The translations under genes and the position numbers were made by a program. Below, piece after piece: positions 16,889 through 46,334 of a stretch of DNA of 64,000 nucleotides. The first letter of the stretch is position 1. Each line of letters opens with the position of its first letter. This stretch comes from Candidatus Uhrbacteria bacterium (GTDB lineage Bacteria; Patescibacteriota; Patescibacteriia; SG8-24), in contig JAFGIV010000013.1 of the NCBI GenBank assembly GCA_016929435.1, positions 15,822-79,821 on the forward strand, read 5' to 3'. The notes below the pieces were generated by a model. That model was not told where the DNA came from, made no database searches, and saw only the letters and a program-made list of their open reading frames with translations.

Positions 16889-18211
16889 ATGTCCGACGAA
16901 CCGGATAAAAACCTGACGACCAGCCCCCTGTCCGGGTTCATGGAACTGCTCCCGGCCGAGCAGTTGGCCTTTAACCGTATATACGATACGATCCGCCGGT
17001 CGTATGAGGCGTTCGGGTTCATTCCGATCGATACGCCGGTTTTGGAGAGGGCGGAGGTCCTGTTGGCCAAGGCCGGTGGGGAGACCGAGAAGCAGATCTA
17101 CCGATTCCGGAAAGGGGATACCGATTTGGCGATGAGGTTCGACCTGACCGTGCCCTTGGCCCGTTACGTGGCCGAACACTGCGGTCAGCTGGTCCTCCCG
17201 TTCCGCCGTTACGCCATGGGAAAGGTCTATCGGGGAGAAAGGGCCCAAGCCGGACGGTTTCGGGAATTCTACCAGTGCGACATCGATGTCATCGGCGACG
17301 GCGAACTTGACCTCCGTTTCGATGCGGAGATTCCCAGCGTCATCCACATGATATTCCGGCAGTTGGGTTTCGAGAGGTTCACGATCCGAATAAACAACCG
17401 AAAGATTTTCGGCGGGCTGTTCCGGGGGTTGGGAATCGAGCGTCAGTCGGTCGGGATCATGCAGGCCGTTGACCGGCTGGAGAAGGTCGGTCCGGAAGCG
17501 GTCCGGAAGGAACTGGCGGAAATGGGACTGCCGGAACCGGCCATCGGCCGGCTGTTCGATTTCGTCGGTTTGGGGGGAACCTGCGACGAGATCATCGCCG
17601 GGTTGAGGAAAATGGGGATTGACGACGGGGGACTGGCCGAAGGGATCAGTGAGCTGGAGACAGTGGTCGGGGCAATCAGGCAATTCGGCGTTCCGGACGC
17701 CAATTTTGCGGTTGACCTGACGATCGCCCGCGGACTGGATTACTATACCGGTACCGTCTACGAGACCCGGTTGGACGATTATCCAGAAATCGGATCGGTC
17801 TGTTCGGGGGGGCGTTATGACGACCTGGCCAGCCACTACACCGACCGGAAACTGCCGGGAGTCGGCATTTCCATCGGCCTGACACGGCTGTTCGACCAGC
17901 TTTACCGGCGGGGGGTGCTGAAGACCGGGGGGTCCACGACCACCAAGGCGCTGATCCTGCCCATGACGGAGGATATGGGACACTGTTTCCGGTTGGCGAC
18001 CAGGTTGAGGGAAGCCGGCATTGCCACCGAGGTATCGTTCGTTTCCGGAAAGATGAAGAAACGCCTGGGTTACGCCGATCGGCTCGGCATCCCGTTCGTG
18101 GTTTTCGTGGGGGACGATGAAATCAGGAAGGGAACCTATACCCTTAAGGATTTCCGGGAAGGCGACCAGGAGGAGCTGACCGAGGCGGAGCTGATACGGA
18201 AGTTGGTTTGA
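16889..18211 (+). CDS. hisS: Histidyl-tRNA synthetase (copy 1, canonical length)
   Basis: Motif 2 YRGERAQAGRFREFYQCD, HisRS-specific GGRYDDL, C-terminal anticodon-binding domain. Confidence 0.9.
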   Translation: MSDEPDKNLTTSPLSGFMELLPAEQLAFNRIYDTIRRSYEAFGFIPIDTPVLERAEVLLAKAGGETEKQIYRFRKGDTDLAMRFDLTVPLARYVAEHCGQLVLPFRRYAMGKVYRGERAQAGRFREFYQCDIDVIGDGELDLRFDAEIPSVIHMIFRQLGFERFTIRINNRKIFGGLFRGLGIERQSVGIMQAVDRLEKVGPEAVRKELAEMGLPEPAIGRLFDFVGLGGTCDEIIAGLRKMGIDDGGLAEGISELETVVGAIRQFGVPDANFAVDLTIARGLDYYTGTVYETRLDDYPEIGSVCSGGRYDDLASHYTDRKLPGVGISIGLTRLFDQLYRRGVLKTGGSTTTKALILPMTEDMGHCFRLATRLREAGIATEVSFVSGKMKKRLGYADRLGIPFVVFVGDDEIRKGTYTLKDFREGDQEELTEAELIRKLV

Positions 18212-18311
18212 CCAATTCCGCTTCGGTACCAAAAACCAGCCTCCATCTCCCCGGTGCCCGTGTGGTCCGGCCGATGGCCGCGCCAAACCGTAGCTCCGAA
18301 GGGACAAGGGC

Positions 18312-18395
18312 TGGTGCCGCGAGTGGGACTTGAACCCACATGAGTTGCCTCGAGCGATTTTGAGTCGCTTGCGTCTGCCATTCCGCCATCGCGGC
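18312..18395 (-). tRNA. tRNA-Leu (anticodon CAA), long variable arm
   Basis: Reverse complement gccgcgatggcggaatggcagacgcaagcgactcaaaatcgct...ggttcaagtcccactcgcggcacca. Anticodon loop ctcaaaa, 84 nt with extended variable arm. Confidence 0.85.
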
Positions 18396-18503
18396 CGGTT
18401 TGTCCGGCGGGACCCTTCCTACCGGGATAAAATACTACCAATTGCGACGGTTGTCAAAAGCCGTCGATGCGGGTAAAGTAAACGGGATGGCAAATGCCTT
18501 TTT

Positions 18504-19274
18504 ATGGCCTATCTCATTTCCGTGGTCAACCAGAAGGGGGGTGTGGGAAAGACGACAACGGCCGTCAATTTGGCGTCGTGCCTGGCCCTAAAGGGCCGTT
18601 TTGTCCTGCTGGTGGATCTTGATCCGCAGTCCAACGCCACCTCCGGTCTGGGGATCGGACATCGCGGGTTGGAGAGGGGTCTGTATGAGGCGATAATTGG
18701 CCAGGTTCCGGTAAGGGACATAACGGTCGGTACCGCAATCGAGGGCCTGAAGGTCGCACCGTCCACCGCCGCCTTGGCCGGGGCGGCCGTGGAGCTGGTG
18801 GACGTCGAGCGGCGCGAATACCGGCTGGCGGAGGCCCTGGCCGACGTCCGAAACAGCTATGACTACATCATCATCGACTGTCCGCCGTCGTTGGGACTCC
18901 TGACCGTCAACGGACTGGTGGCGGCCGATCGCCTGCTGATTCCCGTACAGGCCGAGTACTACGCCCTGGAGGGGCTGAGTCAGCTGCTTCGGACCATTGA
19001 CCTGGTCCGTTCCGGCCTGCGGCCGGAACTGGACGTGATGGGGGCGGTTTTGACGATGTTCGACAGCCGCAACCGACTGTCCAACGATGTCCTGAACGAG
19101 CTGAACAGGTTTTTCCCCAACCGGATATTCAAGGCGGTCATCCCCCGGAACATTCGGCTGGCGGAAGCGCCCAGTTTCGGCCAGCCGATCGTCCAGTACG
19201 ATCCCTGGTCAAAGGGGGCCAAGGCCTACGAACAGCTGACCCAAGAGATATTGGAAATGGAACAGAACATTTAG
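18504..19274 (+). CDS. parA: Chromosome partitioning ATPase ParA/Soj
   Basis: Deviant Walker A KGGVGKTT; followed by parB. Confidence 0.9.
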   Translation: MAYLISVVNQKGGVGKTTTAVNLASCLALKGRFVLLVDLDPQSNATSGLGIGHRGLERGLYEAIIGQVPVRDITVGTAIEGLKVAPSTAALAGAAVELVDVERREYRLAEALADVRNSYDYIIIDCPPSLGLLTVNGLVAADRLLIPVQAEYYALEGLSQLLRTIDLVRSGLRPELDVMGAVLTMFDSRNRLSNDVLNELNRFFPNRIFKAVIPRNIRLAEAPSFGQPIVQYDPWSKGAKAYEQLTQEILEMEQNI

Positions 19275-19277
19275 GTT

Positions 19278-20168
19278 ATGGCCAAAAGACCTTCCGGTCT
19301 CGGTCGCGGACTTGATTCGCTGATTCCGAGCCAAGACAAGACTGCCGCATCCGGCGTTGCCCTGAAGACCGTCCCTGACCGGTCCGGCGACGGATCGGTG
19401 AGGGTGCCGATCTCCGCCGTCATCGCCAATCCGGACCAGCCCCGAGTGGCCTTCAGGCACCATGAGCTGGAGGAGCTGACCGATTCGATTCGGGAACACG
19501 GGATAATCCAGCCCCTGACCGTTACCCCGAACGCTGACGGGACATACGAGCTGATTGCCGGGGAACGCCGCCTTAGGGCCGCCAAGATGGCGGGACTGGA
19601 GTCCGTACCGGTCATGGTCCGGCAGTCCGTCGGCAACCGGGAGAGGCTGATCCTGGCCTTGATCGAGAACATCCAGCGGGAAGACCTGAATCCCGTAGAG
19701 GAGGCGGCGGCATATGACCGGATGTCCAGGGAGTTCGGGATGAAGCAGGAGGATATCGCCAAGAAGGTCGGGAAGGCCCGATCCACGGTCGCCAACACTC
19801 TGCGTCTCCTGGAGCTTCCGTCCGAGATCAGGGAAGCGATTTCCGAGGGGGTGGTGGCGGCCGGGACGGCCCGGGCCATCCTTAGCCTGAAGGACGACGA
19901 AAGCCGGATGGCCTTCTTCCGGAAGATGATGGACAGGGGCGGGGTCATGACCACCCGGCAGGCCGAATCCACGGTCCGACGCTCGTCCGCCGGCAATACC
20001 CGTCGGCGAAAGGATCCGGCCGTGACCGCTGCCGAGGAGCGTATCCGCAACTGTTTGGGCACCAGGATCGACATCAAGAAGAAGGGGAGCAAGGGGTCGA
20101 TCGTCATCGGATTCTATTCGGAGGAGGAGTTCGGGAAGCTGGTGGGGAAACTGGAGGGGTGCAAATAG
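19278..20168 (+). CDS. parB: Chromosome partitioning protein ParB/Spo0J
   Basis: ParB box (GERRLRAAK), HTH region, C-terminal dimerisation region. Confidence 0.9.
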   Translation: MAKRPSGLGRGLDSLIPSQDKTAASGVALKTVPDRSGDGSVRVPISAVIANPDQPRVAFRHHELEELTDSIREHGIIQPLTVTPNADGTYELIAGERRLRAAKMAGLESVPVMVRQSVGNRERLILALIENIQREDLNPVEEAAAYDRMSREFGMKQEDIAKKVGKARSTVANTLRLLELPSEIREAISEGVVAAGTARAILSLKDDESRMAFFRKMMDRGGVMTTRQAESTVRRSSAGNTRRRKDPAVTAAEERIRNCLGTRIDIKKKGSKGSIVIGFYSEEEFGKLVGKLEGCK

Positions 20169-20234
20169 GGGGCCGTCCATTCCCGCAAATTCACGTTCAA
20201 GCAAGAAAAAGCCGGGCAAAACGTCCGGTCTTTT

Positions 20235-21824
20235 CTATCTCCTTCTCTTTCCCCTTGCCGTCGGTTTGGCCGATGGGGACCTGGCGGGGGCAGGTTTGGC
20301 GGACGGGGTGTCCGGACCGGACGGGCCGGGCGGGGCGGTTTCCTTCAGCCATTCGGACAGGCGCGACTTGTTGGCGGAGCGGATGCGGTTCTTGGCGGCG
20401 GTCGTTTTCACGAAGTCCAGCCAATCCGGGTTGGGTGACTTGCGGTTCCGGTCAGTGGTCACCTCACAGCAGTCGCCGGAGGACAGCGGCGTGTCCAGGC
20501 TGACGATCTGGTCGTTGATCCTGGCGCCCACGCATGTGTTCCCCATTTGGGTATGGATGGCATAGGCGAAATCCACCGGAGTCGCCCCTTCAGGCAGGTC
20601 GATGACGTCTCCCTTGGGGGTGAAGACGAAAATGCGACTATGGAAGATGTCGATTTTAGCCCCGATTTTCGGCCCGTCCGTCGAAATCCTCGGCCCGGAT
20701 GGGGCGGATCCGGACAGGTCCCTGACCCAGGAGAGCTGGTCGCTGATCCGGGCGGAAGCCCTCTTCCCGTCCTCGTCATACTGCCAGTGGGCGGCAATGC
20801 CCCGTTCCGCCTCCTCGTGCATTTCCTCGGTCCTGATCTGGAACTCCACCACCTCCCCGTCCTCACAGAATACGGTGGTGTGGAGGGAGCGGTAGCTGTT
20901 CGGTTTCGGGGCGGCGATATAGTCCTTGAACCGTCCCTTCATCGGTTTCCAGGCCTGGTGGATGGCGCCGAGGGCGGCGTAGCAGTCGGCTACCTGCGGG
21001 ACGATTATCCGAAGGGCAATCAGGTCATGGATCCGATCGATGTCCCGATCGTATTTCAGCAGCTTGCGGTAAAGGCTGTAGAGGTGTTTGGTCCGCCCTT
21101 GGACGGAGACAAAGGGGATGTTGGCCTCGTTCAGTCTCTTGCGGAGGAGGTGCTGGATCCGGTTAATGTAACCGGAACGGACCTTAACGGCCGCTTGGGC
21201 CAGTCGGGAGACCCACTCGTATTCCTTCGGCATGGCATGGCGGAAGGCCAGGTCCTCTATCTTGGTCTTGATGTCATACATGCCTAGGCGATTGGCAATC
21301 GGTGAGAATATTTCCAGGGACTCCAGGGCGATCCGGATCCGCTTTTCCGGGGGCAGGGAACCGAGAGTTTCCAGGTTATGCATCCGATCCGCGAACTTCA
21401 CCAGGATTACCCTGATGTCGGAGGCCATTGCCACGAACATCTTCCGGAGGTTTTCCACGTAGCGGTCTATGCCGCGATACTTGATTTTCCCCAGTTTGGT
21501 GATGCCGGCCACCATGGAGGCGATGTCCTCCCCGAAGTCTTTCCGGATGTCATCAACCGTCTTTTCGGTGTCCTCCGGGACGTCGTGGAGCAGTCCGGTC
21601 ACGATGATCGGGACCGGCAGGCGCATTTCCGCCAGGTGTTCCGCTGTCCGCAGGCAATGGGCGATATACGGCTCGCCGGAGGCCCGTTTCTGCCCGGCGT
21701 GGGCCTCCTTGGCGTAATCGAAAGCCAGCCGGATCGTGTCCAGGTCAGCCTTGGGGTTGTTGGCCTTGGCTTTGGCCAGCAGGTTTTGGCATCCCGTTTC
21801 CTCCATATGTCCCGTTATTGGCAT
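20235..21824 (-). CDS. Bifunctional (p)ppGpp synthetase/hydrolase RelA/SpoT homolog, short form
   Basis: HD hydrolase domain (HD...HDVPED), synthetase domain and TGS-like C-terminus. The six-frame ORF extends to 21965; the internal Met at 21824 or 21806 is more plausible. Confidence 0.8.
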   Translation of the reverse strand: MPITGHMEETGCQNLLAKAKANNPKADLDTIRLAFDYAKEAHAGQKRASGEPYIAHCLRTAEHLAEMRLPVPIIVTGLLHDVPEDTEKTVDDIRKDFGEDIASMVAGITKLGKIKYRGIDRYVENLRKMFVAMASDIRVILVKFADRMHNLETLGSLPPEKRIRIALESLEIFSPIANRLGMYDIKTKIEDLAFRHAMPKEYEWVSRLAQAAVKVRSGYINRIQHLLRKRLNEANIPFVSVQGRTKHLYSLYRKLLKYDRDIDRIHDLIALRIIVPQVADCYAALGAIHQAWKPMKGRFKDYIAAPKPNSYRSLHTTVFCEDGEVVEFQIRTEEMHEEAERGIAAHWQYDEDGKRASARISDQLSWVRDLSGSAPSGPRISTDGPKIGAKIDIFHSRIFVFTPKGDVIDLPEGATPVDFAYAIHTQMGNTCVGARINDQIVSLDTPLSSGDCCEVTTDRNRKSPNPDWLDFVKTTAAKNRIRSANKSRLSEWLKETAPPGPSGPDTPSAKPAPARSPSAKPTARGKRRR

Positions 21825-21876
21825 TGTAGCCGCTGTTGGCCGACATTTCAAAATCCCCCGGGGTTGGGGGGCCATC

Positions 21877-21906
21877 AAAAAGCGGGCCTTCGAGCCCGCT
21901 TTTTTC
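21877..21906 (-). terminator. Intrinsic terminator of topA (minus strand)
   Basis: agcgggc-cttcga-gcccgct flanked by A/T tracts, immediately downstream of the topA stop. Confidence 0.6.
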
Positions 21907-21910
21907 TCCC

Positions 21911-24178
21911 CTATTCCTCCCCCTTCTCGATGTCCTTCTCGAACCCGCATTCCTTGTTGGAGCATTTGGCCCTGTCTCCCTTGGCGAAGGTCAGGAGCGA
22001 TCGGCAGGATGGGCAGGTCTCACCGGTCGGGCGGTTCCAGAGGGCGAACTTGCAGGATGGGTACCGGGAACAGGCATAGAATACCCGCCCGGTCCGCGTC
22101 CGTTTCTCGGCGATGTCCCCTTCCCCGCATTCCGGACATTTTACGCCGGTCTTCTTGACCAGGGGCTTGATTGACTTGCAGTCCGGATAGGCGGAACAGC
22201 TCAGGAACTCGCCGAACCGGCCCCGACGGACCACCATGTCCGCCCCGCACTTTTCGCATTTCTCGTCTGTCCTGTTCGTGCCGTCGTTCGGCATCCCCGG
22301 TTCCGTTCCCGGCAGGGGCCGGGAGCTCTTGCATTCCGGGAAACCGGAACAGGCCAGGAATTTCCCGAACCGGCCGATCTTTATCAGCATCGGCTTTCCG
22401 CACTTTTCGCAGGTTTCCCCCTCGGCCGGTTCGGATGCCCGTTTCGGTACCGTAGCCTCCTTTTCCTTCAGGCTGGCCTCGAACGGCCGATAGAAATTCT
22501 CGATGACCGGTTCCCATTCCTTTTCCCCTTCGGCGATCTCGTCCAGACGCTCCTCCATTCCGGCGGTGAACTTGACGTCAACGATGTTCGGAAAGTGCTC
22601 GACCAGCAGGTCCGTAACGATGGAGGCCAGCTCGGTCGGCTGAAGGGCCTTCCCCTCCTTTTGGACATAGCCGCGATCGACGATCGTGCTGATGATCGGG
22701 GCGTAGGTGGACGGTCGCCCGATGGCGTTCTCCTCCAGGGCCTTGACCAGGGAGGCCTCGTTGTAGCGGGGAGGCGGTTCGGTGAAGTGCTGTTTGGGGT
22801 CGATGCCCAGGGTCTCCAGCGCCTGTCCCTCGTCCATCTCCGGCAGGATGACCATGTCCGCGTCCTTCTCGTACAGGATGCGGTACCCTTCCCTTACCAC
22901 GATCTTGCCGTTGGCCCGGAATCCGCCGGTGAAACCGTCGGCCGTAGCCCGGATTTCCGCCGAGGTGGTCAGCATCTCGGCGTCAACCATCTGGCTGGCG
23001 ACGGCCCGGCGCCAGATCAGCTCGTAGAGTTTCCTTTGGCGCTCGTTCAGGTGAGCCCTGACGTCGTTCGGGTGGCGCAGGACATCGGTCGGGCGGATGG
23101 CCTCGTGGGCCTCTTGGGCGTTTTTCGACTTGGTCTTGAAGCGGCGCGGGCTGTCGGGGACGGAATCCCCGCCGTGGCTTGATTGGAGGTAGCTGCGGCA
23201 CTCCTCGATGAACTTTTCGGCCAGGTTGACCGAATCGGTCCTCATGTAGGTGATGAGACCGACATGCTCGCCGCCGATGTCAATGCCCTCATACAGCTGT
23301 TGGGCCAGCATCATGGTCATCTTGGCCGAGAAGTTCAGCTTGTTGTTGGCGTCCTGCTGCAGCGTGGAGGTGGTGTAGGGGGGCGGCGGGGCCCGGAAGA
23401 CGGTCTTTTTCTCCGTCCGGCCGACCCTCCATTCCGCGTCCTTCAGGCCGTCAATTACGGTTTGGGAGGATTTTTCGTCCGGCAGGCCGAACTTGTCCAG
23501 CGGCCTGTCGTTCACGCTCACCAGTTTGGCCAGGAAATTCGGGCCATCGGTCTTGGACTTTCGGAGGTTGGCCTCGATGGTCCAGTATTCCTGGGGCTTG
23601 AAGGCCCCTATTTCCCGTTCCCGCTCGACGATCAGGCGGACGGCAACCGACTGTACCCGTCCGGCGGACAGTCCCCGGGCGACCTTTTTCCAGAGAAAGG
23701 GGGAGAGCCTGTAGCCGACCAGCCGATCCAGGATGCGGCGGGCCTGTTGGGCATCCACCAGGTGACGGTCGATGTTTCGGGGATTGGCCAGGGCCGCATC
23801 GATGGCGCTTTTCGTTATCTCATGGAAAGTGATGCGGTTGGATTTCCCCTCCTTGAGCCCGAGGAGTTCGGACAGGTGCCAGGCGATGGCCTCCCCCTCC
23901 CGGTCCTCATCCGATGCGAAATAGACGGCGTTTGACTTGGCCGCCTCCTTCTTCAGTTCAGAGGCGACCTTTTTTGATTTGGTGGGGATGACGTAACGGG
24001 GCCTGAACCCGTTTTCCGTGTCGATTCCCAGCTCTTTTTTGGGCAGGTCGCGGATATGCCCGAAAGAGGACATGACCTTAAAGCCACTGCCCAGAAACTT
24101 GGAGATCGTCTTGGCTTTGGTCGGGGACTCGACGATCACCAGCGATTTTTTGCTCGGCATAGTTCGTTCGGTATTCAT
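21911..24178 (-). CDS. topA: DNA topoisomerase I with C-terminal zinc-ribbon repeats
   Basis: TOPRIM N-terminus (LVIVESPTKAKTI); multiple C-terminal C4 ribbons (CEKCGKPM..., CEKCGADMV..., CPECGEG...). Confidence 0.93.
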   Translation of the reverse strand: MNTERTMPSKKSLVIVESPTKAKTISKFLGSGFKVMSSFGHIRDLPKKELGIDTENGFRPRYVIPTKSKKVASELKKEAAKSNAVYFASDEDREGEAIAWHLSELLGLKEGKSNRITFHEITKSAIDAALANPRNIDRHLVDAQQARRILDRLVGYRLSPFLWKKVARGLSAGRVQSVAVRLIVEREREIGAFKPQEYWTIEANLRKSKTDGPNFLAKLVSVNDRPLDKFGLPDEKSSQTVIDGLKDAEWRVGRTEKKTVFRAPPPPYTTSTLQQDANNKLNFSAKMTMMLAQQLYEGIDIGGEHVGLITYMRTDSVNLAEKFIEECRSYLQSSHGGDSVPDSPRRFKTKSKNAQEAHEAIRPTDVLRHPNDVRAHLNERQRKLYELIWRRAVASQMVDAEMLTTSAEIRATADGFTGGFRANGKIVVREGYRILYEKDADMVILPEMDEGQALETLGIDPKQHFTEPPPRYNEASLVKALEENAIGRPSTYAPIISTIVDRGYVQKEGKALQPTELASIVTDLLVEHFPNIVDVKFTAGMEERLDEIAEGEKEWEPVIENFYRPFEASLKEKEATVPKRASEPAEGETCEKCGKPMLIKIGRFGKFLACSGFPECKSSRPLPGTEPGMPNDGTNRTDEKCEKCGADMVVRRGRFGEFLSCSAYPDCKSIKPLVKKTGVKCPECGEGDIAEKRTRTGRVFYACSRYPSCKFALWNRPTGETCPSCRSLLTFAKGDRAKCSNKECGFEKDIEKGEE

Positions 24179-24221
24179 TATATAATCCGGAACAGGCGGA
24201 CTGACTTACATTAAATGACAG

Positions 24222-25322: not shown

Positions 25323-25470
25323 GTCCGTTCGGTTAATCGGCGGAGACCTTAGGTCAGATTCAGGGAGCTGTCAAATCGAGTTTTTTGCTTATTTTAAGCA
25401 ATCTGACCGGATGGGTATGTCGGCAACCGGTGTGGATTGGTTGGGGGTTGGGGATAATTTTTTAAGGCAG

Positions 25471-25499
25471 GGGACAGTCCCCAGCTTAAATTTTTAAGC
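25471..25499. repeat. REP-like palindrome copy
   Basis: ttaaggcaggggacagtccccagcttaaa. Confidence 0.65.
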
Positions 25500-25559
25500 T
25501 TCTTCCCTATTTTTGCCCTATTCCCGTTTCAACCCGGATTTCGGGCCGTAAAAAAACAA

Positions 25560-25578
25560 GCCGGGGACTGTCCCCGGC
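25560..25578. repeat. REP-like palindrome copy (short form gccggggactgtccccggc)
   Basis: Perfect 19-bp palindrome with the same GGGGACTGTCCCC core; forms a doublet with the 25471 copy. Confidence 0.55.
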
Positions 25579-25581
25579 CCG

Positions 25582-26163: not shown

Positions 26164-26167
26164 TCCG

Positions 26168-36907: not shown

Positions 36908-36930
36908 TAAGGCGGGGGATGTCCCCGGAT
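36908..36930. repeat. Degenerate REP-like copy
   Basis: ataaggcgggggatgtccccggatttg. Confidence 0.35.
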
Positions 36931-36959: not shown

Positions 36960-36967
36960 CCCATCAT

Positions 36968-38179: not shown

Positions 38180-38391
38180 CGGACCTGTCAGGGGGTTTTA
38201 TTGCGGATCTCACCAGATCCATGTCGGCTAAATAGCAGGCAGGCGCACGAAGACAGGGGGGAGAATCCCGGTTCACCGGAGAAGGTTGGGCGAAGTTCGC
38301 ATGACACGCAAGCCCGCAGCGCAAAAGGGGCAAATAGTTCGGATAATGACGAGTTAAGTGAAATAATTTTTGGGCTATAACCTTTAAAAAC

Positions 38392-38895
38392 ATGAGTTAC
38401 TACATAATCATTCGAGGCCCGTTAGGAAGCGGTAAATCAACGATATCCGAGAAACTCGCTCAAATTCTTGACGCAAAATACATTGGAATGGACGAGGTGC
38501 TCGAAAAGCATGGCCTTGATAAAATGCCGCCTGACGCACCTTGCATACCAGCGGAAAATTTTATAAAAGCAAATGAAATCGTACTGCCAGAAGTAAAAAA
38601 ATTACTTACAGGCGGCAAGATCGTTATTTTTGATGCCTGCTTTTATCATAAGGAAGTGATCGAGCACCTCGTCCAAAACCTTGAAATGCCGCACTACATT
38701 TTTACGCTTAAAGCACCATTGGAACTCTGCATAAAAAGAGATAGTGAACGAAGCAAAACTCTTGGTGAAGGTGCGGCAGGGGCTGTCCATTCGCTCGTTT
38801 CCCGGTTCGACTACGGCAATATTGTTGATGTTACAGGGGGCCTCGAAGACGCAATAAAAGATATTCTTTCTTTCCTACCGATGCCCAAAAATTAA
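38392..38895 (+). CDS. Chloramphenicol-phosphotransferase-like (CPT family) P-loop kinase
   Basis: Walker A GPLGSGKST at the N-terminus; VIFDACF (Walker B-like); overall block order resembles CPT/AAA_33 small kinases. Lies in a low-GC island. Confidence 0.45.
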   Translation: MSYYIIIRGPLGSGKSTISEKLAQILDAKYIGMDEVLEKHGLDKMPPDAPCIPAENFIKANEIVLPEVKKLLTGGKIVIFDACFYHKEVIEHLVQNLEMPHYIFTLKAPLELCIKRDSERSKTLGEGAAGAVHSLVSRFDYGNIVDVTGGLEDAIKDILSFLPMPKN

Positions 38896-39075
38896 ATTAC
38901 TTAACAGCGTGTATGCGGTTCCGTTCGTCGTCGCACCTTATCTTCACTGCACCCATATTTGTTGGTGATTGCGCTTCGCACTATTATTTCACCCGCAAAC
39001 ATCGCTTATATCTGGCCGTCGGGCGCAATTTCGCTCCGCCCCCCAAAACGATTATAATTTTAAGGGAATGAAATT

Positions 39076-40059
39076 TTGATTTTTATGAATCCAGAAATGT
39101 CCCACGGCATTGAACGACCCGAATCACGGCAGGAGGGTTCGGTCGTTCTTGACGCCCTGTCTTTCGAGTTTTGCGGGGATGATTTGGTGCGTGACTTTTA
39201 CGGTAAAAAATTGCGAGAGATGGAAGATTACACAAAATGGCTGGAGGACAGCAGGGAAAATTTAGAACAGAACAGGGAGAAAATAGCCAAGGCCGTGGAA
39301 GACGGCCTGCTCAATGACCCCGAACCAGAAACAATTTGGAAATTTCAGGCCGATAAGGCGAGGGAGAGTCAGGAGAAGGTGTTGGCGATAAAAAAGGAGA
39401 TAGAAAGTAGAATCAAAGAAATTAGGGACGAAACGGGGAGAAGATTGGGCAAATTTCTCCCCGATTGGTTTCCCGGTGAGGCAAGAATCACCTTCACCAT
39501 GAACGAAAAAGCCGATTTTTGCGTTGAAGGCGAAACCGTAACCGTAGATTTGGGACGACTGTCGTTTGAGCAAAACCCGGTCGAAAAAGTGAAGGAAGGT
39601 CTGGCACACGAAGTTTTTCATCTTTGGATGAAGGAGAAAAACAAGCGGCCTGACCCTGAGCGGAGCGATGAAACTGACGATGACCTAAAAAACCAAATCA
39701 TATCCCGAACCGTCGATGAGGGTCTGGCGGTTTTGGTGAGCGGACAATCCTTGGCGGAGCATCACCAAAAACAGGGACGAGACTATCAAGAGTACATTGC
39801 GGAGTCATTTGAATTCTTCAGGGAATTTTTAGCGCAGGATGACGGAGCGGAGCTGGAAAAAATCAACGAGAAGGAATTCAGGAACATGGGACATTTTTAT
39901 GTGGTCGGCAATGAAATCGCGGCGGCTGTCCTGCGGCAGGACGGCATGGAAAAATTTAGGGGACAAATCGTTGAGGCAAGAGACAACCCGCCCGTGTTTT
40001 TGGGGAGATACAGGAAGATTTGCGGAAAAAACGCAGGTTTGCATAAAATCGATCCATAA
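39076..40059 (+). CDS. Hypothetical protein with HExxH zinc-metallopeptidase-like motif
   Basis: 327 aa, Glu/Lys-rich; GLAHEVFHLWM contains HExxH. Low-GC island. Start could be the internal Met at about 39088. Confidence 0.35.
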   Translation: MIFMNPEMSHGIERPESRQEGSVVLDALSFEFCGDDLVRDFYGKKLREMEDYTKWLEDSRENLEQNREKIAKAVEDGLLNDPEPETIWKFQADKARESQEKVLAIKKEIESRIKEIRDETGRRLGKFLPDWFPGEARITFTMNEKADFCVEGETVTVDLGRLSFEQNPVEKVKEGLAHEVFHLWMKEKNKRPDPERSDETDDDLKNQIISRTVDEGLAVLVSGQSLAEHHQKQGRDYQEYIAESFEFFREFLAQDDGAELEKINEKEFRNMGHFYVVGNEIAAAVLRQDGMEKFRGQIVEARDNPPVFLGRYRKICGKNAGLHKIDP

Positions 40060-40293
40060 AAATAATTTTGCCCGAATGGTGTCCGCTATCGTTCGTTAAT
40101 CTGTCGGCGTTAGCCAATGCGGCATATCCGGTTACGGCTTTCGTCCGAAAGCCTCCATCCATATTTTATTTCGCCCCGCCCGACCGTCGCCCGCGCGGCA
40201 TGCCGGCCCGGTGGCCCCGCCGTCGCCCCGCCGCGATCGCACAAACGCCGCCCCTTATCGGAAATGATTTAGCCGCCTAATCTTACTGACAAT

Positions 40294-40905
40294 ATGGAAA
40301 AAGAAGATTTTACGTCGATTGGAATCTGCTTTTCGTGCGGGGTGCGCAAACGAAACGGTAAGGATGTTCTGGCTTGGGATACGCGAGCCAGGACCGATAG
40401 GGCATTCATCCTATACAAACTTGGATATATCAGCAAAATCCTCTGTACCGGGGGCATATTCCAAAAGGGGCAGCAGGTTCCGATCGCCGAATTAATGAAA
40501 GGTTACCTGACAGGAAAGGGCGTGCCCAAAAACGACATTCTAATCGAGACCAGATCCGTGGAAACCGTAGAGAACATAAAATTTTCCCTCTTATTACTGA
40601 AAAAAAGAAATATTCTCAAAAATCTCAAAAATGCCGAGCAGTTGCGCTTGGTTTTGATTAGCGAACCGAATCATTTGCGCCGTATAGAGATTATCGCCCG
40701 TGCTTATTTGGAAAGACACAAAATAGGCAAATTCGTGCCCTTGCTACTCGATCCGGTCCATTACCATATTTCTGAAAAAACCAGGCACGAAGAGGACGCA
40801 ATGCTGTACCATACGGCCCTTGATCCGCTTGGTGAGGGTGAGATTTTTGAAAAAATTAGACAGGAAAGACGTCAGGCCCTTGGCAAAAGACACGGTTCAC
40901 GTTAA
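40294..40905 (+). CDS. DUF218 (YdcF/SanA/ElyC-like) domain protein
   Basis: ILIETRSVETVENIKFSLLLL matches the DUF218 signature (E..S.nT.EN). Low-GC island. Confidence 0.5.
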   Translation: MEKEDFTSIGICFSCGVRKRNGKDVLAWDTRARTDRAFILYKLGYISKILCTGGIFQKGQQVPIAELMKGYLTGKGVPKNDILIETRSVETVENIKFSLLLLKKRNILKNLKNAEQLRLVLISEPNHLRRIEIIARAYLERHKIGKFVPLLLDPVHYHISEKTRHEEDAMLYHTALDPLGEGEIFEKIRQERRQALGKRHGSR

Positions 40906-40974
40906 CGTGTCGGTGTCTTTGAAAAATGACGTCCGCCGAACGGTGGCGTCCAAAATCCCCCACAGGAGGAAAAA

Positions 40975-41376
40975 ATGACGGTACAATTCAGGAAAACATT
41001 AGATACCCTGCTCTCGTTCAACGAAGGAAGGCCTATAAGGGTTGGAGTTCGGGGATCAAGAGAGTATCTAAACGCAATATTGGGCTATTTTCGAGATAGA
41101 TCATTTATCGTCTCTGAACAGGGATCGGTTCGTGATCTCGGGAATGCCTTTCCCATTCCCGAAAACATACCAGATACAGCCCCCGGATATGTAGTCGTGG
41201 TTGATTCAAGGGGTGCTTGGGACAATCACACGATGAATAAGGGAATCCTAACGGCCAATCTGGGAATCTCTGATGGTCAAAACGCCGTTTTTATCTCATG
41301 GACCTCTGATCTCAACGAAACTTCAGGAGGTGGGGCGGAATGGGACACCTCTTTTCTTGAGGGTATTAACCAGTAG
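40975..41376 (+). CDS. Hypothetical protein (133 aa)
   Basis: Intact ORF at the island edge; no motif recognised. Confidence 0.3.
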   Translation: MTVQFRKTLDTLLSFNEGRPIRVGVRGSREYLNAILGYFRDRSFIVSEQGSVRDLGNAFPIPENIPDTAPGYVVVVDSRGAWDNHTMNKGILTANLGISDGQNAVFISWTSDLNETSGGGAEWDTSFLEGINQ

Positions 41377-41512
41377 CTCCTGCCGCCATCCCCAAAAAAA
41401 TCGCCTTGACCGGGGCGATTTTCTGTTCCCCCCGCCGCCAGGTTCCGGAGGTTCGGATATCCGGCATAATCTGGTATAATACCATTGCAGGATAACTCAA
41501 ATACCATTCGGG

Positions 41513-42583
41513 ATGTCCAATTTCAGTTCAGCGGAATTGACCATAATCGGCGCTTTCGGGGCGGTCTTTCTGGCTTTCCTGACGATTCACCCCTACCGTC
41601 GCCGGCTTTTCGGTTGGCGGATCGCGGCGGTGGAGGCGTTCGCCTTCGCCCTGGTCATGATCAACTTCACGGAAATGGTGATGTCCAGGGACAGCGGGCA
41701 GTTTACGGTCCGGACGGTCCTGTTTACGGTTTCGGCCATCGCCGGAACCCTCCTGGTCCGGAGCGTGGTCGCGGAGATGGAAACCCACCGGAAAGTGAAG
41801 GCCCTGGCGGTTCGGCTGAACAGGATGAACCGCGAGCTGCGCCGGATGGACGAGATGAGGAGCGAATTCGTTTCCGTCGCCTCCCACCAGCTGCGGACCC
41901 CGGTTTCGGTCATCAGGGGATACCTTTCCCTCATCAAGGACGGGGCGTTCGGGAAGCTGGAGGGGGACCTGCAGGACAAGATGGAGCAGATATACGACAT
42001 AAACGAACGGCTGGTCCTTTTGATCAACAACCTGCTCAACGTCTCCCGGATAGAGAAGGACGCCGCCCAGTTCTGGTGTTCGGAGGTGAACCTTCCGGAG
42101 ATCATCCGCCGGACGGTGGACAGCATGGGGTTTCGGATCCGCGGAAAGGGGCTGACGCTTGATTTCGTTGATCCGGAAGCCGGAGTGCCCAATGTCTTCG
42201 CCGACCCGGAACGTCTGACCGAGGTGATCGTCAACCTGATCGATAACGCCGTAAAGTACACCTATTCCGGTTCCGTGACGGTGAGCGTTTCGGAGGGGGA
42301 GGACGGGTCGTCGGTCATCGTCCGGGTGAAGGACACCGGCATCGGCATGGACCCGCAGGACATGCACCACGTGTTCCAGAAATACTACCGTCCCCACCGC
42401 CCGACCGACGAGCACCAATCCGGACTGAATCTGGGTTTGGGGCTGTATGTCTGCGCCCGCTTCCTGGAAAGCATGGGCGGGAAGATTTGGGTGGAGTCGA
42501 CGGAACCGGGGAAGGGGACCACCGTCGCTTTTTCCCTGCCGGTCCGTCCGGGCGGGGTCTGCGTCCCCACGGAGGGAAAGTGA
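41513..42583 (+). CDS. Sensor histidine kinase (orphan, no adjacent response regulator)
   Basis: N-terminal TM segments; H-box FVSVASHQLRTPVSVIRGY; HATPase_c N/G boxes (NLIDNAVKYT, DTGIGM, GLGLYVC). Confidence 0.85.
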   Translation: MSNFSSAELTIIGAFGAVFLAFLTIHPYRRRLFGWRIAAVEAFAFALVMINFTEMVMSRDSGQFTVRTVLFTVSAIAGTLLVRSVVAEMETHRKVKALAVRLNRMNRELRRMDEMRSEFVSVASHQLRTPVSVIRGYLSLIKDGAFGKLEGDLQDKMEQIYDINERLVLLINNLLNVSRIEKDAAQFWCSEVNLPEIIRRTVDSMGFRIRGKGLTLDFVDPEAGVPNVFADPERLTEVIVNLIDNAVKYTYSGSVTVSVSEGEDGSSVIVRVKDTGIGMDPQDMHHVFQKYYRPHRPTDEHQSGLNLGLGLYVCARFLESMGGKIWVESTEPGKGTTVAFSLPVRPGGVCVPTEGK

Positions 42584-42702
42584 GGACGACAGGCCCGATT
42601 CAGCGCCTTTTCGTTTGACGGCAGCCTTGGGGGGCTGTAAAATTCCTGGGAATAACAAACAGGGGAGAAAGCCTTCCCCTGCGGATTTAATAATCCCGGT
42701 CT

Positions 42703-43209
42703 ATGTTTCAAAAGAGCAACCCTATGTCCAACAAGGAAAATTCCGGCAATGAGGCCGAAACCGTAATCGCCGCCTCCGTTAGGGTGGAGGGCGACTTCGC
42801 CAGCCAGGGCAATGTCCTGATCGAGGGAACGGTAGAGGGGAGCCTGCGGACCGAAAGGAACCTGCGGGTCGGGGAAAGGGCCAACATCAGCGCCGATGTC
42901 TTTGCCGCCAACGCCTCCGTGGCCGGGGAGATCACCGGAAACATCACCGTTTCCGAGCGCCTGGAGCTTGAGCCGACCGCCCGGATCCACGGCGACATCA
43001 GGACAAAGTCGCTTGTGGTCGCCAATGGGGCGATGGTCGAGGGGCGCATATCGATGGAACAGAAGGCCGAGGGCGGGGCTGCGGATAGGGGGAAAGCCAA
43101 GGCTTCCGTCAGGGAAACGGCGGGAATCCGGACGGAGGGTTCCGAAAAGGCTGGGGTGACGGAAGAAGAGACGAGTCGGGAGAGGGTAACGGCCGCTTTC
43201 GGGCGGTAA
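42703..43209 (+). CDS. Bactofilin family cytoskeletal protein
   Basis: Beta-helical bactofilin repeats (GNVLIEGTVEGSL.., ANISADVFAANASVAGEITGNITV, RIHGDIRTKSLVVANGAMVEGRI); acidic/Lys C-terminal tail. Alternative start at 42721. Confidence 0.75.
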   Translation: MFQKSNPMSNKENSGNEAETVIAASVRVEGDFASQGNVLIEGTVEGSLRTERNLRVGERANISADVFAANASVAGEITGNITVSERLELEPTARIHGDIRTKSLVVANGAMVEGRISMEQKAEGGAADRGKAKASVRETAGIRTEGSEKAGVTEEETSRERVTAAFGR

Positions 43210-43275
43210 CCGGCCCGAACATCCCGGATCGGCAGCGAGCCGCAGCGGCTCGCTGCCTGTGATTGAGTTTTTGAG

Positions 43276-44049
43276 ATGTATTACTTCATCTACGACAGTT
43301 ACCTGAATGACCGCAAGTACGGCCGGACAATGGCGGCCGTGGAGACGCGGCTGACCGACTTGGGCCTTTCCGGAAGAATCGGCCGCTTGGGGGCCTTCAC
43401 CAACGCCCGGGGGCTGGTCAGGGACGAGGTCAGGAAGGGCATCAATACGATTGTCGTGGTCGGGAACGACGAGACCGTCGCCAAGGTGGTTTCCGGCATC
43501 GGTGAGGCCGAGGTGACCCTTGGGATAATTCCGGTCGGGCAGCCGAACGGGATCGCCAGGGCCCTGGGCATACCGCCGGCGGAGGAGGCCTGCGACGTCC
43601 TGTCCCGTCGGGTAACGCAGAGGGTGGACCTGGGCAGTTTGAACGGCCAGCTTTTCCTGTCCGAGGTGAGGGTTCCCCCCGGCAGGCACACGGTCGAGAT
43701 CGAGGGCCGGTATCGGGTTTTCCCGGAAACCGACAACTGCGAGCTGGTGATAAGCAACATGAAGGGTTTCGGGATGCTGCCGAGCGGGTCCTCCAGGGAG
43801 TTGGGCGATCCCCAGGACGGGGTCTTGGACATGATGATCATCCCGGTCCGGTCCGGGAAATGGCTTCCCGGTTCCCGGGACGGCGGTTCCACCCTGATCC
43901 CGATCCGGCGGATGGTCATTCGGGGCGACGAGGACTTCGACGCGTCAGTCGATACCGTCAGGGTGACGGGAAAGGAGATGACGATTGAGGTGGTGCCGAA
44001 CCGCCTTAAGGTCATCGCCGGCCGGGGGCGGGTTTTCGGGGAAGTCTAG
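43276..44049 (+). CDS. Diacylglycerol-kinase catalytic-domain (YegS/BmrU-like) lipid kinase
   Basis: TIVVVGNDETVAKVVSGI...TLGIIPVGQPNGIARALGIP, the DAGK_cat signature GGDGT-equivalent block. Confidence 0.65.
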   Translation: MYYFIYDSYLNDRKYGRTMAAVETRLTDLGLSGRIGRLGAFTNARGLVRDEVRKGINTIVVVGNDETVAKVVSGIGEAEVTLGIIPVGQPNGIARALGIPPAEEACDVLSRRVTQRVDLGSLNGQLFLSEVRVPPGRHTVEIEGRYRVFPETDNCELVISNMKGFGMLPSGSSRELGDPQDGVLDMMIIPVRSGKWLPGSRDGGSTLIPIRRMVIRGDEDFDASVDTVRVTGKEMTIEVVPNRLKVIAGRGRVFGEV

Positions 44050-44103
44050 CCGTTTGCCAAAACGCCGGTCGGTTGCTATGATTCCAGCGCAATTTGCGGT
44101 TTC

Positions 44104-44180
44104 GGGCGTGTAGCTCAGCTGGTTAGAGCGCTGTCCTCACACGACAGAGGCCACTGGTTCGAACCCAGTCACGCCCACCA
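44104..44180 (+). tRNA. tRNA-Val (anticodon CAC)
   Basis: gggcgtgtagctcagctggttagagcgctgtcctcacacgacagaggccactggttcgaacccagtcacgcccacca; anticodon loop ctcacac. Confidence 0.85.
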
Positions 44181-44215
44181 TGATTTTTTTTCGTTAAACC
44201 TTAGCCAGTCGGGCC

Positions 44216-44842
44216 ATGGACACGGATCCCCAAAAATACGCCGACATTCCCGGCGGGGAAGGGGGCGGGACCGAAAGGAAAGGGACTTTCGGGGCGGTTT
44301 TGGAGTTCGTCGGCGAGTTGGTCCACGTCATACTGATATCCCTGGCCATCATCGTCCCGATCCGGTATTTCCTGATCCAGCCGTTCTACGTCAAGGGGGC
44401 ATCGATGGAGCCGAGCTTCTATGACCACGAATACCTGATCATCGACGAGATCAGCTACCGGTTCGGCGACCCGAACCGGGGCGACATCGTCGTTTTTCGG
44501 TACCCGAACGACCCCAGGCAGTTTTTCATCAAGCGGGTAATTGGCCTGCCGGGGGAACGGGTGGTGATAGGCGGCGGTCAGGTGACCATCTACGGCAACG
44601 GCGATGCGGAAGGGAAGGTGCTGGACGAAGGCGCCTATCTGGGGACCGCCATAACCGTGGGGAACAGGGACGTCACCCTGGCCGAGGACGAATTTTTCCT
44701 GATGGGGGACAACCGTTCCGCCAGCCTTGATTCCCGGGTGTTCGGGGCCGTCTCCAGGGACTTCATCGTCGGTCGGGTATGGTTCAGGGGTTGGCCGCCG
44801 GAAAAGATCCGTTTCTTCGGTTCCGAAAACGCCCTGGAATAA
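44216..44842 (+). CDS. lepB: Signal peptidase I
   Basis: Catalytic Ser region (VKGASMEPSF), Lys box (FFIKRVIGLPGERV) and GDNRSASLDSR boxes. Confidence 0.88.
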   Translation: MDTDPQKYADIPGGEGGGTERKGTFGAVLEFVGELVHVILISLAIIVPIRYFLIQPFYVKGASMEPSFYDHEYLIIDEISYRFGDPNRGDIVVFRYPNDPRQFFIKRVIGLPGERVVIGGGQVTIYGNGDAEGKVLDEGAYLGTAITVGNRDVTLAEDEFFLMGDNRSASLDSRVFGAVSRDFIVGRVWFRGWPPEKIRFFGSENALE

Positions 44843-44873
44843 TTTTTTCGTCTATTTTTTTCCGAAAAGGCAT

Positions 44874-46334
44874 ATGGCAACCAAACCCAAGAAACCGATC
44901 GCCAAAGCCAAGGCGGCGACTCGAAAGGAAAAACCCCGGAAGGAACCGGTTCAAAGGCCGGTCCAGAAAAAGAAGCCGGCCGTGAAGGATCCGCCGGCCA
45001 GGAAGGTTGCGCCCAAGGAGGAGCCGGCGGAAGAAAACGCGGCAGCGGCGACCAAGGCCGTTCGGATTCCGCAGCTGCTCCGGGGCATGCGCGACATCCT
45101 TCCGTCCGAACAGCGGTATTGGCGCCATGTCGTCCGGAAGATGGAGGAGATAGCCCTGGCCTACGGGTACGAGAGGATCGACACCCCTGTCCTGGAGGAG
45201 ACTTCCCTGTTCGTCCGTTCCGTCGGCAAGCAGAGCGATGTCGTTGAGAAGGAGCTGTTCACCTTCACGGACCGGAGCGGGGACAGCGTTTCCCTCCGTC
45301 CGGAGGGTACCGCCTCCGTGGCCCGGGCCTACATAAACCATGGCATGGTCAACCTGCCGCAGCCGGTGAAGATGTTTTACGTCGGATCGATGTTCCGTTA
45401 CGAGCGTCCCCAAGCCGGCCGTTTCCGCGAGCATCACCAGTTCGGCCTGGAGGTCTTGGGTGAGGGCAGCCCGGTAATCGATGCCGAGCTGATCATGCTG
45501 TCCCACCTGCTCTACCGCGACATAGGCATCAAGACCGTGGCGCACGTGAACAGCATCGGCTGCTCCAACTGCCGCCAGGCATACCTGGAGCGCTTGACTG
45601 ACTTCTATCGGCCGAGACGCTCCCGTCTCTGCGAGGACTGCCGGCGTAGGCTGCTGAAGAATCCCCTGCGCCTGTTGGACTGCAAGGAGCCTTCATGCGT
45701 GGCCGCCCGCGAGGAGGTGCCGCATATCGTCGACTACCTCTGTGAGGAATGCAAGAACCACCTGACCAGGGTCCTGGAATACCTGGATGAGATGGGCGTT
45801 CCGTATGTCCTCAACCCGCACCTGGTCCGCGGCCTGGACTACTATACCCGGACGGTATTCGAGCTCATGCAGTCCGACGAGCAGTCCGCCGGACAGCACT
45901 CCCTGGCCGGGGGCGGCCGTTACGACAACCTCCTGGAACAGCTCGGCGGGAGTCCGACTCCGGCCTGCGGCTTCTCCATTGGCGTGGAACGGGCCATCCT
46001 GCAGATGAAGGCCCTGGACCTGCAGCCGGTTTCCGACCTGCAGCCCGACGTCTTCCTGGCCCAGTTGGGCGATACGGCCCGCCGGAAGGCCTTGATCCTG
46101 TTCGAGAGCCTTCGGAATTCCGGGATCCGGACCTCCGCCACCTTTTCCAAGAGCGCCCTGAAGGGCCAGTTGGAGGCCGCCAACCGGTTGGGGGCCAGGT
46201 ATACGGTCATTATCGGGCAGAAGGAAGTGATCGACGGGACGGTGCTTGTCCGGGACATGGAGTCCGGAATGCAGGAAGTGGTCGATTTCACCAAGGCCGT
46301 AGCGGAGATGAGGAAGAAACTGAGCCGCATGTAG
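44874..46334 (+). CDS. Histidyl-tRNA synthetase paralog (copy 2) with Lys-rich N-terminal extension and Cys-rich insertion
   Basis: Motif 2 FRYERPQAGRFREHHQFG, HisRS GGGRYDNL, anticodon-binding C-terminus. About 60-aa KPKK/AKAK-rich leader. Insertion with 8 Cys (CSNCRQ...CEDCRRRL...CKEPSC...CEECKNHL). The six-frame ORF begins at 44727, inside lepB; ATG at 44874 preferred. Confidence 0.8.
   Translation: MATKPKKPIAKAKAATRKEKPRKEPVQRPVQKKKPAVKDPPARKVAPKEEPAEENAAAATKAVRIPQLLRGMRDILPSEQRYWRHVVRKMEEIALAYGYERIDTPVLEETSLFVRSVGKQSDVVEKELFTFTDRSGDSVSLRPEGTASVARAYINHGMVNLPQPVKMFYVGSMFRYERPQAGRFREHHQFGLEVLGEGSPVIDAELIMLSHLLYRDIGIKTVAHVNSIGCSNCRQAYLERLTDFYRPRRSRLCEDCRRRLLKNPLRLLDCKEPSCVAAREEVPHIVDYLCEECKNHLTRVLEYLDEMGVPYVLNPHLVRGLDYYTRTVFELMQSDEQSAGQHSLAGGGRYDNLLEQLGGSPTPACGFSIGVERAILQMKALDLQPVSDLQPDVFLAQLGDTARRKALILFESLRNSGIRTSATFSKSALKGQLEAANRLGARYTVIIGQKEVIDGTVLVRDMESGMQEVVDFTKAVAEMRKKLSRM

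Follow-up and report, generated by a model that had tools for sequence, protein, structure and literature searches.

Two histidyl-tRNA synthetases of different types in a Candidatus Uhrbacteria genome: a resident enzyme with a polycationic tail and a probable lateral acquisition

A stretch of 64,000 nucleotides from a contig of a Candidatus Uhrbacteria bacterium (assembly GCA_016929435.1, contig JAFGIV010000013.1), here called the window, carries two genes for histidyl-tRNA synthetase (HisRS) on its forward strand, copy 1 at positions 16889-18211 (440 amino acids) and copy 2 at 44874-46334 (486 amino acids). The explanation that we favour, with moderate confidence and on sequence grounds, is that they encode two active isoenzymes charging the same canonical tRNA-His: a resident enzyme, copy 2, with an N-terminal tail and cysteine clusters, and a laterally acquired enzyme, copy 1, which has neither and is probably co-transcribed with memb177, the membrane-protein gene just upstream of it. 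An initial reading of the DNA without database searches (the sequence-only reading) had reported two complete HisRS genes in one small genome, and this stands. Both open reading frames (ORFs) were found exactly at these positions, proteins identical to them and both annotated as histidine--tRNA ligase lie on a single 93,709-bp 'Candidatus Uhrbacteria bacterium' contig at NCBI, and the host group, Patescibacteria/Parcubacteria, belongs to the candidate phyla radiation (CPR) and has a small genome.

Both proteins are predicted to be catalytically competent HisRS. Against the NCBIfam model TIGR00442 (hisS), which has a cut-off of 286.75 bits, copy 1 scored 386.8 bits and copy 2 scored 468.5 bits, while the curated HisZ model gave 184.5 and 169.5 bits for the two, both under its cut-off of 271.65. 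The Pfam domains tRNA-synt_His and HGTP_anticodon are present in each, the anticodon-binding domain of copy 1 being PF03129 at residues 354-439 (E 5.5e-17). A joint alignment of the two window proteins with the HisRS of E. coli, Nostoc (3net), human, Sinorhizobium and Clostridia, and an alignment with S. aureus HisRS, show that both copies retain the residues that bind histidine and ATP, the counterparts of E. coli R113, E115, R116, Q118, R121, R123 and Q127, the RGLDYY and GGRYD motifs and the motif 3 Arg. The copy 1 motifs YRGERAQAGRFREFYQ, ARGLDYYTG, SGGRYD and GISIGLTRL align to the 3net, human and E. coli enzymes; copy 2 has LRPEGTA, FRYERPQAGRFREHHQ, VRGLDYYTR, GGGRYD and GFSIGVERA, and its equivalents of E. 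coli E83, R113, R116, Q118, R121, R123, Q127, R259, Y264 and R311 were all found in place. At columns that are at least 95% conserved within their own families, the consensus residue is present at 149 of 151 in copy 1 and at 137 of 139 in copy 2, and all four deviations are conservative. The AlphaFold2 model of copy 2 (mean predicted local distance difference test, pLDDT, 86) has the three-domain fold of bacterial HisRS and matches 1adj, 4e51 and 1kmm with Foldseek TM scores of 0.85-0.92, normalised by target length. The motif 2, GGRYD motif and anticodon-binding domains listed for both copies by the sequence-only reading were recovered by alignment and Pfam. Its view that neither copy is an obvious HisZ-type regulator also holds, since both fall below the HisZ cut-off and a careful alignment shows the catalytic residues intact. 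Both copies share with HisZ the HisRS-like fold of the catalytic domain, but unlike most HisZ they keep the anticodon-binding domain, their catalytic residues are intact, and the window genes examined include no hisG. The model scores, together with the intact anticodon-binding domain and catalytic residues, largely rule out that either protein is HisZ-like or degenerate.

The two genes are not copies of one another. Their 29% identity indicates two different HisRS types, and this value, together with their different best solved relatives, speaks against a recent duplication, which the sequence-only reading had named as one possible origin. Among solved structures, the best relatives of copy 2 are S. 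aureus 1qe0 and E. coli 1kmm (E ~1e-105) and the best of copy 1 is Nostoc 3net (E 1.8e-105), followed by Elizabethkingia 6NHI and the human cytoplasmic HisRS. By sequence, copy 2 is assigned to the classical bacterial type and copy 1 to the type found in Nostoc (3NET), Clostridia and Babeliales. With bacterial-type HisRS (E. coli HisS, S. aureus 1QE0, T. thermophilus 1ADJ/4RDX) copy 2 shares the catalytic core, the helical insertion and the HGTP domain, but it differs from these enzymes in its disordered polycationic N-terminal tail of 64 residues and in having all eight Cys. The alignment of copy 1 with 3NET of Nostoc sp. PCC 7120 covers both proteins from end to end, and copy 1 has in common with this second type (Clostridia HisS, PRK12420-like proteins and, distantly, eukaryotic cytoplasmic HisRS) the signatures RFDLTVP, EFYQCDID, ARGLDYYTG, SGGRYD and GISIGLTRL and an insertion domain of the same kind. 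It differs from second-type enzymes elsewhere in being an extra gene beside the bacterial type, at a position unrelated to the relA-hisS-aspS locus of Clostridia. The co-occurrence itself is not unique: Acetoanaerobium noterae (2.63-Mb record) and Bacillus sp. N5-665 (5.5-Mb record) each hold one full-length bacterial-type (type-1) and one second-type (type-2) HisRS in a single genome, as here, although these genomes are larger and their type-1 enzymes lack a Lys-rich tail. The two HisRS types and their occasional coexistence are therefore already visible in the databases.

Copy 2 is the vertically inherited, resident HisRS of the lineage. Its closest homologues, at 52-78% identity, are from Patescibacteria, and its neighbourhood is conserved in the closest long relative, locus L005 on a contig of 1,516,122 bp, where the order diacylglycerol kinase, signal peptidase, HisRS, S21, YqeY, pilin-domain protein and giant protein is the same as in the window. 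The signal peptidase I gene (lepB, 44216-44842, forward strand) is the left neighbour of copy 2, with a Peptidase_S26 protein at the same position in L005, and a tRNA-Val gene (44104-44180) stands upstream, at the same position, in both. Fourteen contigs of relatives hold both a copy-2-type HisRS and an orthologue of the ParB of the window, as judged by equal-sized contigs in the two lists of homologues. It is this conserved gene order, together with the 14 contigs, that marks copy 2 as resident. The reading frame of copy 2 extends open upstream to a TTG at 44727, where it overlaps lepB.

A pyruvoyl-type histidine decarboxylase (PF02329) is encoded at 3036-3869 of L005, about 6 kb upstream of the HisRS of that locus. 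HisRS genes accompany histidine decarboxylase (hdc) clusters in lactic acid bacteria, and the proximity of decarboxylase and HisRS in L005 is curious.

Copy 1 is most likely, judged from sequence and synteny, a lineage-specific lateral acquisition. The window reads, in order, a GT4 gene, two tRNA-Met genes, DUF2061, a small ORF, memb177, copy 1, tRNA-Leu, ParA, ParB, RelA, TopA and DprA, with tRNA-Leu and the last three on the reverse strand. The native gene memb177 (16346-16879, forward strand) encodes a membrane protein of 177 amino acids with homologues of 47-51% identity at the same position in two relatives, L006 (of 1.5 Mb) and L007, and it ends 9 nt before copy 1, so that the two are probably co-transcribed. 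The right border of the slot is the tRNA-Leu(CAA) gene at 18312-18395 (reverse strand; ARAGORN and Rfam), followed by the syntenic backbone of ParA and ParB (18504-20168, forward strand; Pfam), which come in the same order in L006, L007 and a further locus, L008. In L006 the same backbone holds, between the memb177 homologue and tRNA-Leu, a 160-residue membrane protein, a DUF2202 protein and one more ORF, and no HisRS; in L007 the order is membrane protein, a gene for 161 residues, tRNA-Leu, ParA and ParB, again with no HisRS. The 160- and 161-residue predicted membrane proteins (L006 6946-7428 and L007 588-1073) are 53% identical to each other, and no homologue of them was found anywhere in the window. 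None of the 14 contigs of relatives is represented among the 120 best homologues of copy 1, and the gene neighbourhoods of its nearest homologues (68-71% identity) are unrelated and include genes for outer-membrane efflux and others of Gram-negative type. The acquisition is read from these observations together with the taxonomic spread of its homologues, described next.

The named relatives of copy 1 are from Babeliales, Moranbacteria and Pacebacteria. Scans of GTDB species genomes and of metagenomes, in which the matches came by way of one motif, EFYQCDID, and those listed were mostly Clostridia, gave one Patescibacteria genome at 67% identity without shared synteny and then Clostridia at 53-60% in the former, and nothing closer than 68% in the latter, in both cases among the matches listed. 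Among these same matches, no copy-2-type gene was found within the flanks of the copy-1-type loci. In Clostridia the copy-1-type hisS stands downstream of relA in many loci and directly upstream of aspS in at least 21, which is the classical relA-hisS-aspS arrangement of Firmicutes, and this type is a true housekeeping HisRS elsewhere, in many Clostridia as well as in Babeliales and certain other Patescibacteria. It is also borne on plasmids of 139-146 kb in three strains of Paraclostridium bifermentans, on one of which (NZ_CP079738.1, locus 3977-5272) it adjoins genes for a Crp/Fnr regulator and for cupins. Such plasmids are a possible vehicle for transfer of this HisRS type.

A full RelA/SpoT homologue with HD, synthetase and TGS domains is encoded near copy 1 (20235-21965, reverse strand). 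Since it belongs to the native backbone and lies on the opposite strand to copy 1, the proximity looks coincidental.

The composition of the window and an independent assembly were examined for signs of contamination. The codon-usage distances of the two HisRS genes to the pooled usage of the window are 0.10 and 0.11 and their GC contents at third codon positions (GC3) 0.76 and 0.83, and both lie within the range of window genes for codon usage. In the Logan assembly of run SRR13394437, one contig equals window positions 15599-17290 at 100% identity and covers the junction of memb177 and copy 1, and a second reproduces 18312-22759, starting at tRNA-Leu. The Logan assembly breaks inside tRNA-Met (15599), inside copy 1 (17290) and exactly at the end of tRNA-Leu (18312); possible causes of these breaks are shared tRNA sequence and strain variation in the surroundings of the acquired gene. 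By arithmetic from its length and range, the Logan contig over the right end of the window would begin inside copy 2. Exact-product look-ups of both HisRS genes returned no match on record. As regards contamination, which the sequence-only reading had named as a danger, codon usage, synteny and the identity of the left junction show that the window is not an obvious contaminant.

From their sequences, the predicted substrate of both copies is one and the same tRNA-His, with the canonical G-1:C73. Copy 1, like copy 2, keeps the counterparts of E. coli R116, Q118, R121 and R123 in the motif-2 loop, and Q118 of the E. coli enzyme has a role in the recognition of C73. In the published T. thermophilus HisRS-tRNA complex, R115 and R122 bind the phosphate of G-1. 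In the joint alignment the Sinorhizobium enzyme, of the alphaproteobacterial type that serves a tRNA-His lacking G-1, shows K in place of R116, G in place of Q118 and a DDDD sequence in its G-1 pocket, in agreement with the published account of this type. Since the loop residues that recognise G-1:C73 are kept in both copies, nothing suggests a different tRNA substrate. The proposal of the sequence-only reading that a duplication had become specialised towards an alternative tRNA is not borne out: the two genes are of different HisRS types, copy 1 is best read as lateral and the G-1:C73 residues are kept in both. A specialised role for the second enzyme is nevertheless possible. ARAGORN and Rfam found four tRNA genes in the window, two for Met, one for Leu-CAA and one for Val-CAC, and the Rfam scan of the window gave these four only, with no T-box or other leader near either HisRS gene.

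The eight Cys of copy 2 (residues 230, 233, 253, 256, 270, 275, 290 and 293) lie between motifs 2 and 3, the part from C230 to C293 being encoded at 45561-45752 on the forward strand. The sequence-only reading had taken them for an insertion of this enzyme, probably forming two zinc ribbons. The eight Cys are real, but the segment adds no length to the insertion domain seen in the S. aureus and E. coli enzymes, with which it aligns residue for residue, and the model of copy 2 superposes over about 420 columns on bacterial HisRS structures of 415-420 residues; the block is thus the ordinary HisRS insertion domain, common in enzymes of ordinary length, and not an added insertion. Nor are zinc ribbons, with their beta-hairpin knuckles, supported by the model: the domain has a pLDDT of 94-98, DSSP assigns helices only to residues 228-310, each CxxC lies at the N-terminus of a helix, and beta-hairpins are absent from this region, which is thus predicted to be all-helical.

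The Cys pattern is widespread, as in Monoglobus and further Bacillota. C253, C256, C270 and C275 are present in 118-120 of the 120 closest homologues of copy 2, and C230, C233 and C293 in 101-105 of them, while 87 have Asp and 24 have Cys at position 290. When the 89-residue domain was searched against 1.84 billion cluster representatives, 2,417 matches were obtained, and at least 64 of the best 150 of these carry all four Cys pairs, many of the carriers being ordinary HisRS of 405-440 residues without an N-terminal tail. All eight Cys occur in the HisRS of Monoglobus pectinilyticus and the inner four in those of Brevibacillus and Acetoanaerobium; three are found in Fusobacterium, Paenibacillus and S. 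aureus, and a single one in E. coli. Among 265 sequences, in counts that ignore kinship, the inner four positions are conserved in 256-264 and C233 and C293 co-vary independently of them; the substitutes at positions 230 and 290 are Asp or His. This suggests two separate four-ligand metal sites, an inner one of C253, C256, C270 and C275 and an outer one of C230, C233, C290 and C293. In this arrangement the outer putative site would tie the entry of the insertion domain to its exit and the inner putative site would stand at the domain tip. No description of metal binding in the HisRS insertion domain was found in the literature or in solved structures. Copy 1 has five scattered Cys, with no CxxC and no Cys cluster.

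The N-terminal tail of copy 2 covers approximately residues 1-64 (44874-45065, forward strand) and is rich in Lys, Ala and Pro. Residues 1-69 include 20 Lys and Arg, and residues 1-70 have a pLDDT of 45-53 and are predicted to be coil or disordered. Among the closest homologues, the conserved start could be placed in 119, and 114 of these have a tail of at least 20 residues, with a median length of 42 residues, a Lys and Arg fraction of 0.28 compared to 0.13 in the core, a Lys, Arg, Ala and Pro fraction of 0.62 and a median net charge of +10, while the tail sequence itself is not alignable among them. The tail is hence a compositional feature of the whole Patescibacteria HisRS clade. The sequence-only reading had likened this KPKK/AKAK-rich leader to the appendices of eukaryotic aminoacyl-tRNA synthetases (aaRS); its composition and disorder are as described, but it is not special to this gene.

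Lys-rich, tRNA-binding N-terminal extensions are known from eukaryotic aaRS such as yeast AspRS and mammalian LysRS. Like these, the copy 2 tail is N-terminal, polycationic, of low complexity and predicted to be disordered on a complete aaRS core, and in being terminal, Lys-rich and flexible it resembles a eukaryote-like polycationic appendix. In contrast to the eukaryotic extensions it is bacterial, rich in Ala and Pro and histone-H1-like, is not predicted to form an amphipathic helix and shows no sequence homology to them. Eukaryotic HisRS carries a WHEP domain instead, which copy 2 lacks; Pfam gave no WHEP-TRS match. When all ORFs of at least 100 residues in the window were scanned, the only other protein with a comparable Lys-rich segment was the product of 10757-11497 (forward strand), a YbaK/ProX-type aminoacyl-tRNA editing-domain protein (Pfam tRNA_edit, E 1.1e-21, residues 64-190) with Lys/Ala-rich tails at both ends (residues 1-45 and 205-246); a tail of this kind is missing from TyrRS, AsnRS, AspRS and copy 1. 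Binding of tRNA is common to the two proteins with tails, which lends circumstantial support to a non-specific tRNA-binding role for the tails, and by analogy the tail of copy 2 is most likely a non-specific tRNA-binding arm that raises tRNA affinity.

Taken together, the favoured explanation would work as follows. The insertion domain of the resident copy 2 would clamp the acceptor stem, as in solved HisRS-tRNA complexes, its two clusters of four Cys (or Asp/His) ligands most likely holding structural metal ions, probably zinc, and its disordered polycationic tail most likely raising tRNA affinity non-specifically. The lateral copy 1 may have replaced a small membrane-protein gene between memb177 and tRNA-Leu, would probably be transcribed from the promoter of the upstream gene, appears to have come to match the codon usage of the host, and would act as an alternative isoenzyme with neither tail nor Cys clusters. 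It could be plain redundancy on the way to replacement, or a backup when the metal- or thiol-dependent copy 2 is compromised or inhibited. A more far-reaching proposal, in which tails of the eukaryotic, polycationic, tRNA-binding kind arose independently in Uhrbacteria-type Patescibacteria, on HisRS and the YbaK-type deacylase, the insertion domain forms two new HisRS metal sites and copy 1 serves as a metal- or redox-independent backup, would account for the same sequences, though we regard it as unlikely.

Several observations weigh against the favoured explanation. A search for a tRNA-His gene in the window, in roughly 10 kb of additional flanking sequence taken from Logan contigs and in the loci of the relatives found none. 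The absence of copy 1 from relatives is based on the L006 and L007 loci that were inspected and on contig matching, which misses homologues below about 58% identity. In a neighbour-joining tree copy 1 falls among sequences that are unnamed or Babeliales-like, with bootstrap values for the nested clades of at most 2 of 50, and consequently no donor is named; on the question raised by the sequence-only reading, duplication or lateral transfer, synteny and homologues favour a lateral origin. No integration scars, direct repeats of tRNA ends or mobile-element genes were found flanking copy 1. Only its left junction is reproduced by Logan, positions 17290-18312 falling outside the Logan contigs. 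Finally, the co-variation of C233 and C293, both kept in 235 of the 265 sequences, both lost in 23 and discordant in 7, is a count that ignores kinship.

Two of the alternatives are nested within the favoured explanation and concern what copy 1 is for. Copy 1 may be a xenologue midway through displacing the resident HisRS, a neutral and transient redundancy with no division of labour in which either gene could be lost. This is possible, though it would not be our first expectation: aaRS genes are often replaced laterally, each HisRS type is the sole housekeeping enzyme in different lineages, the two copies have the same tRNA-recognition residues and relatives manage with copy 2 alone, but the host-like codon usage of copy 1 and the strong constraint seen in its agreement with 149 of 151 conserved columns suggest long retention rather than a brief intermediate, and the same pairing of types persists in cultured Bacillota. 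The two enzymes could also form a metal- or redox-sparing pair, in which the Cys-cluster-free copy 1 takes over under zinc limitation or thiol-oxidising stress. Parallels exist in Cys-containing and Cys-free ribosomal-protein paralogues and in the duplicated ThrRS of cyanobacteria, the eight ligand positions of copy 2 co-vary as two sites where copy 1 has only scattered Cys, and Acetoanaerobium has, beside a type-2 enzyme, a type-1 enzyme that retains the inner Cys4 site. Set against this, no regulator or Zur/Fur-type site was found and no relevant literature on a link between HisRS paralogues and Zur or zinc came up in a search, and we consider the proposal decidedly unlikely.

The remaining alternatives question the function or the reality of the pair. 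A different substrate or a non-translational role for copy 1, such as a second tRNA-His lacking G-1, hdc-like regulation or another acceptor, would find precedent in the full-length second HisRS of hdc clusters, of which 9 Tetragenococcus and 2 Limosilactobacillus plasmid records match copy 2; a hisS2 is named in the hdc-cluster paper (PMC5313534), and a review from 2022 has no characterised full-length HisRS duplicate among those it covers. Such a role is nonetheless very improbable when copy 1 keeps the loop equivalent to R116/Q118/R121/R123 in place of the K, G and DDDD pocket of Sinorhizobium, its orthologues occupy the canonical relA-hisS-aspS locus in Clostridia, no hdc homologue was found in the window and hisG was absent from the window genes examined. 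The case for one copy being an inactive HisZ-like or pseudo-enzyme paralogue would start from HisZ as the classic HisRS paralogue and from the sub-threshold HisZ matches of both copies, but with the HisS cut-off passed, the anticodon-binding domain present and the adenylate and histidine motifs intact in each it is scarcely credible; CPR genomes also generally lack histidine biosynthesis. An assembly or binning artefact, with copy 1 stemming from another organism and joined at tRNA genes, might be read from the Logan breaks at tRNA-Met, inside copy 1 and at tRNA-Leu and from the closest copy 1 homologues being in non-CPR contexts. The left junction is however 100% identical in a Logan contig, the flanks are syntenic with Uhrbacteria relatives to within 100-300 bp and codon usage is typical. 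Since the formation of a chimera would require a pair of breakpoints no more than about 1.4 kb apart, between syntenic flanks, we give an artefact hardly any chance.

The literature on CPR HisRS, HisRS zinc sites and hisS1/hisS2 yielded nothing specific, and two features appear to be undescribed: the polycationic tail that a whole clade of bacterial HisRS carries, and the apparent double metal site. If the favoured explanation is true, a second aaRS of another type, gained by lateral transfer, can persist even in a streamlined CPR genome, giving a snapshot of aaRS replacement and calling for caution when aaRS are used as single-copy markers or for metabolic inference in metagenome-assembled genomes. 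The Lys/Ala/Pro-rich tail on HisRS and a tRNA deacylase would then be a bacterial counterpart of the appended tRNA-binding domains typical of eukaryotes, and the widespread Cys pattern of the insertion domain would point to structural metal sites; most of the ligands have been lost in all species whose bacterial HisRS has been crystallised. These findings leave the basic view of how HisRS functions as it was.

Elsewhere in the window, AsnRS (450 residues, TTG start) is followed directly by a short bacterial-type AspRS (464 residues) at 5579-8338 on the forward strand. The latter matches a 590-position AspRS model in two stretches, so that the large insertion domain usual in AspRS appears to be missing. 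Between AspRS and an unannotated ORF of 279 residues on the opposite strand stands the gene for a DUF559 / MTES_1575 restriction-endonuclease-like protein (8391-8879, forward strand). A stretch of low GC content (0.48-0.51 compared to about 0.60) at 38392-41376, between TyrRS and a histidine kinase, encodes an AAA_33 kinase-like protein, a DUF5700 protein (putative zinc peptidase, GC3 0.54), a DUF218 protein and one ORF without assignment; L005 has different genes at this place (ArgRS, the pyruvoyl histidine decarboxylase and two kinases), which makes a variable or acquired island probable. Two proteins of 742 and 3,250 residues with domains of type IV secretion system pilins are encoded at 47336-59320 on the forward strand, immediately after copy 2, S21 and YqeY; the larger has additional faint Big_5 and TIG matches, and their syntenic counterparts in L005 have 731 and 3,456 residues.

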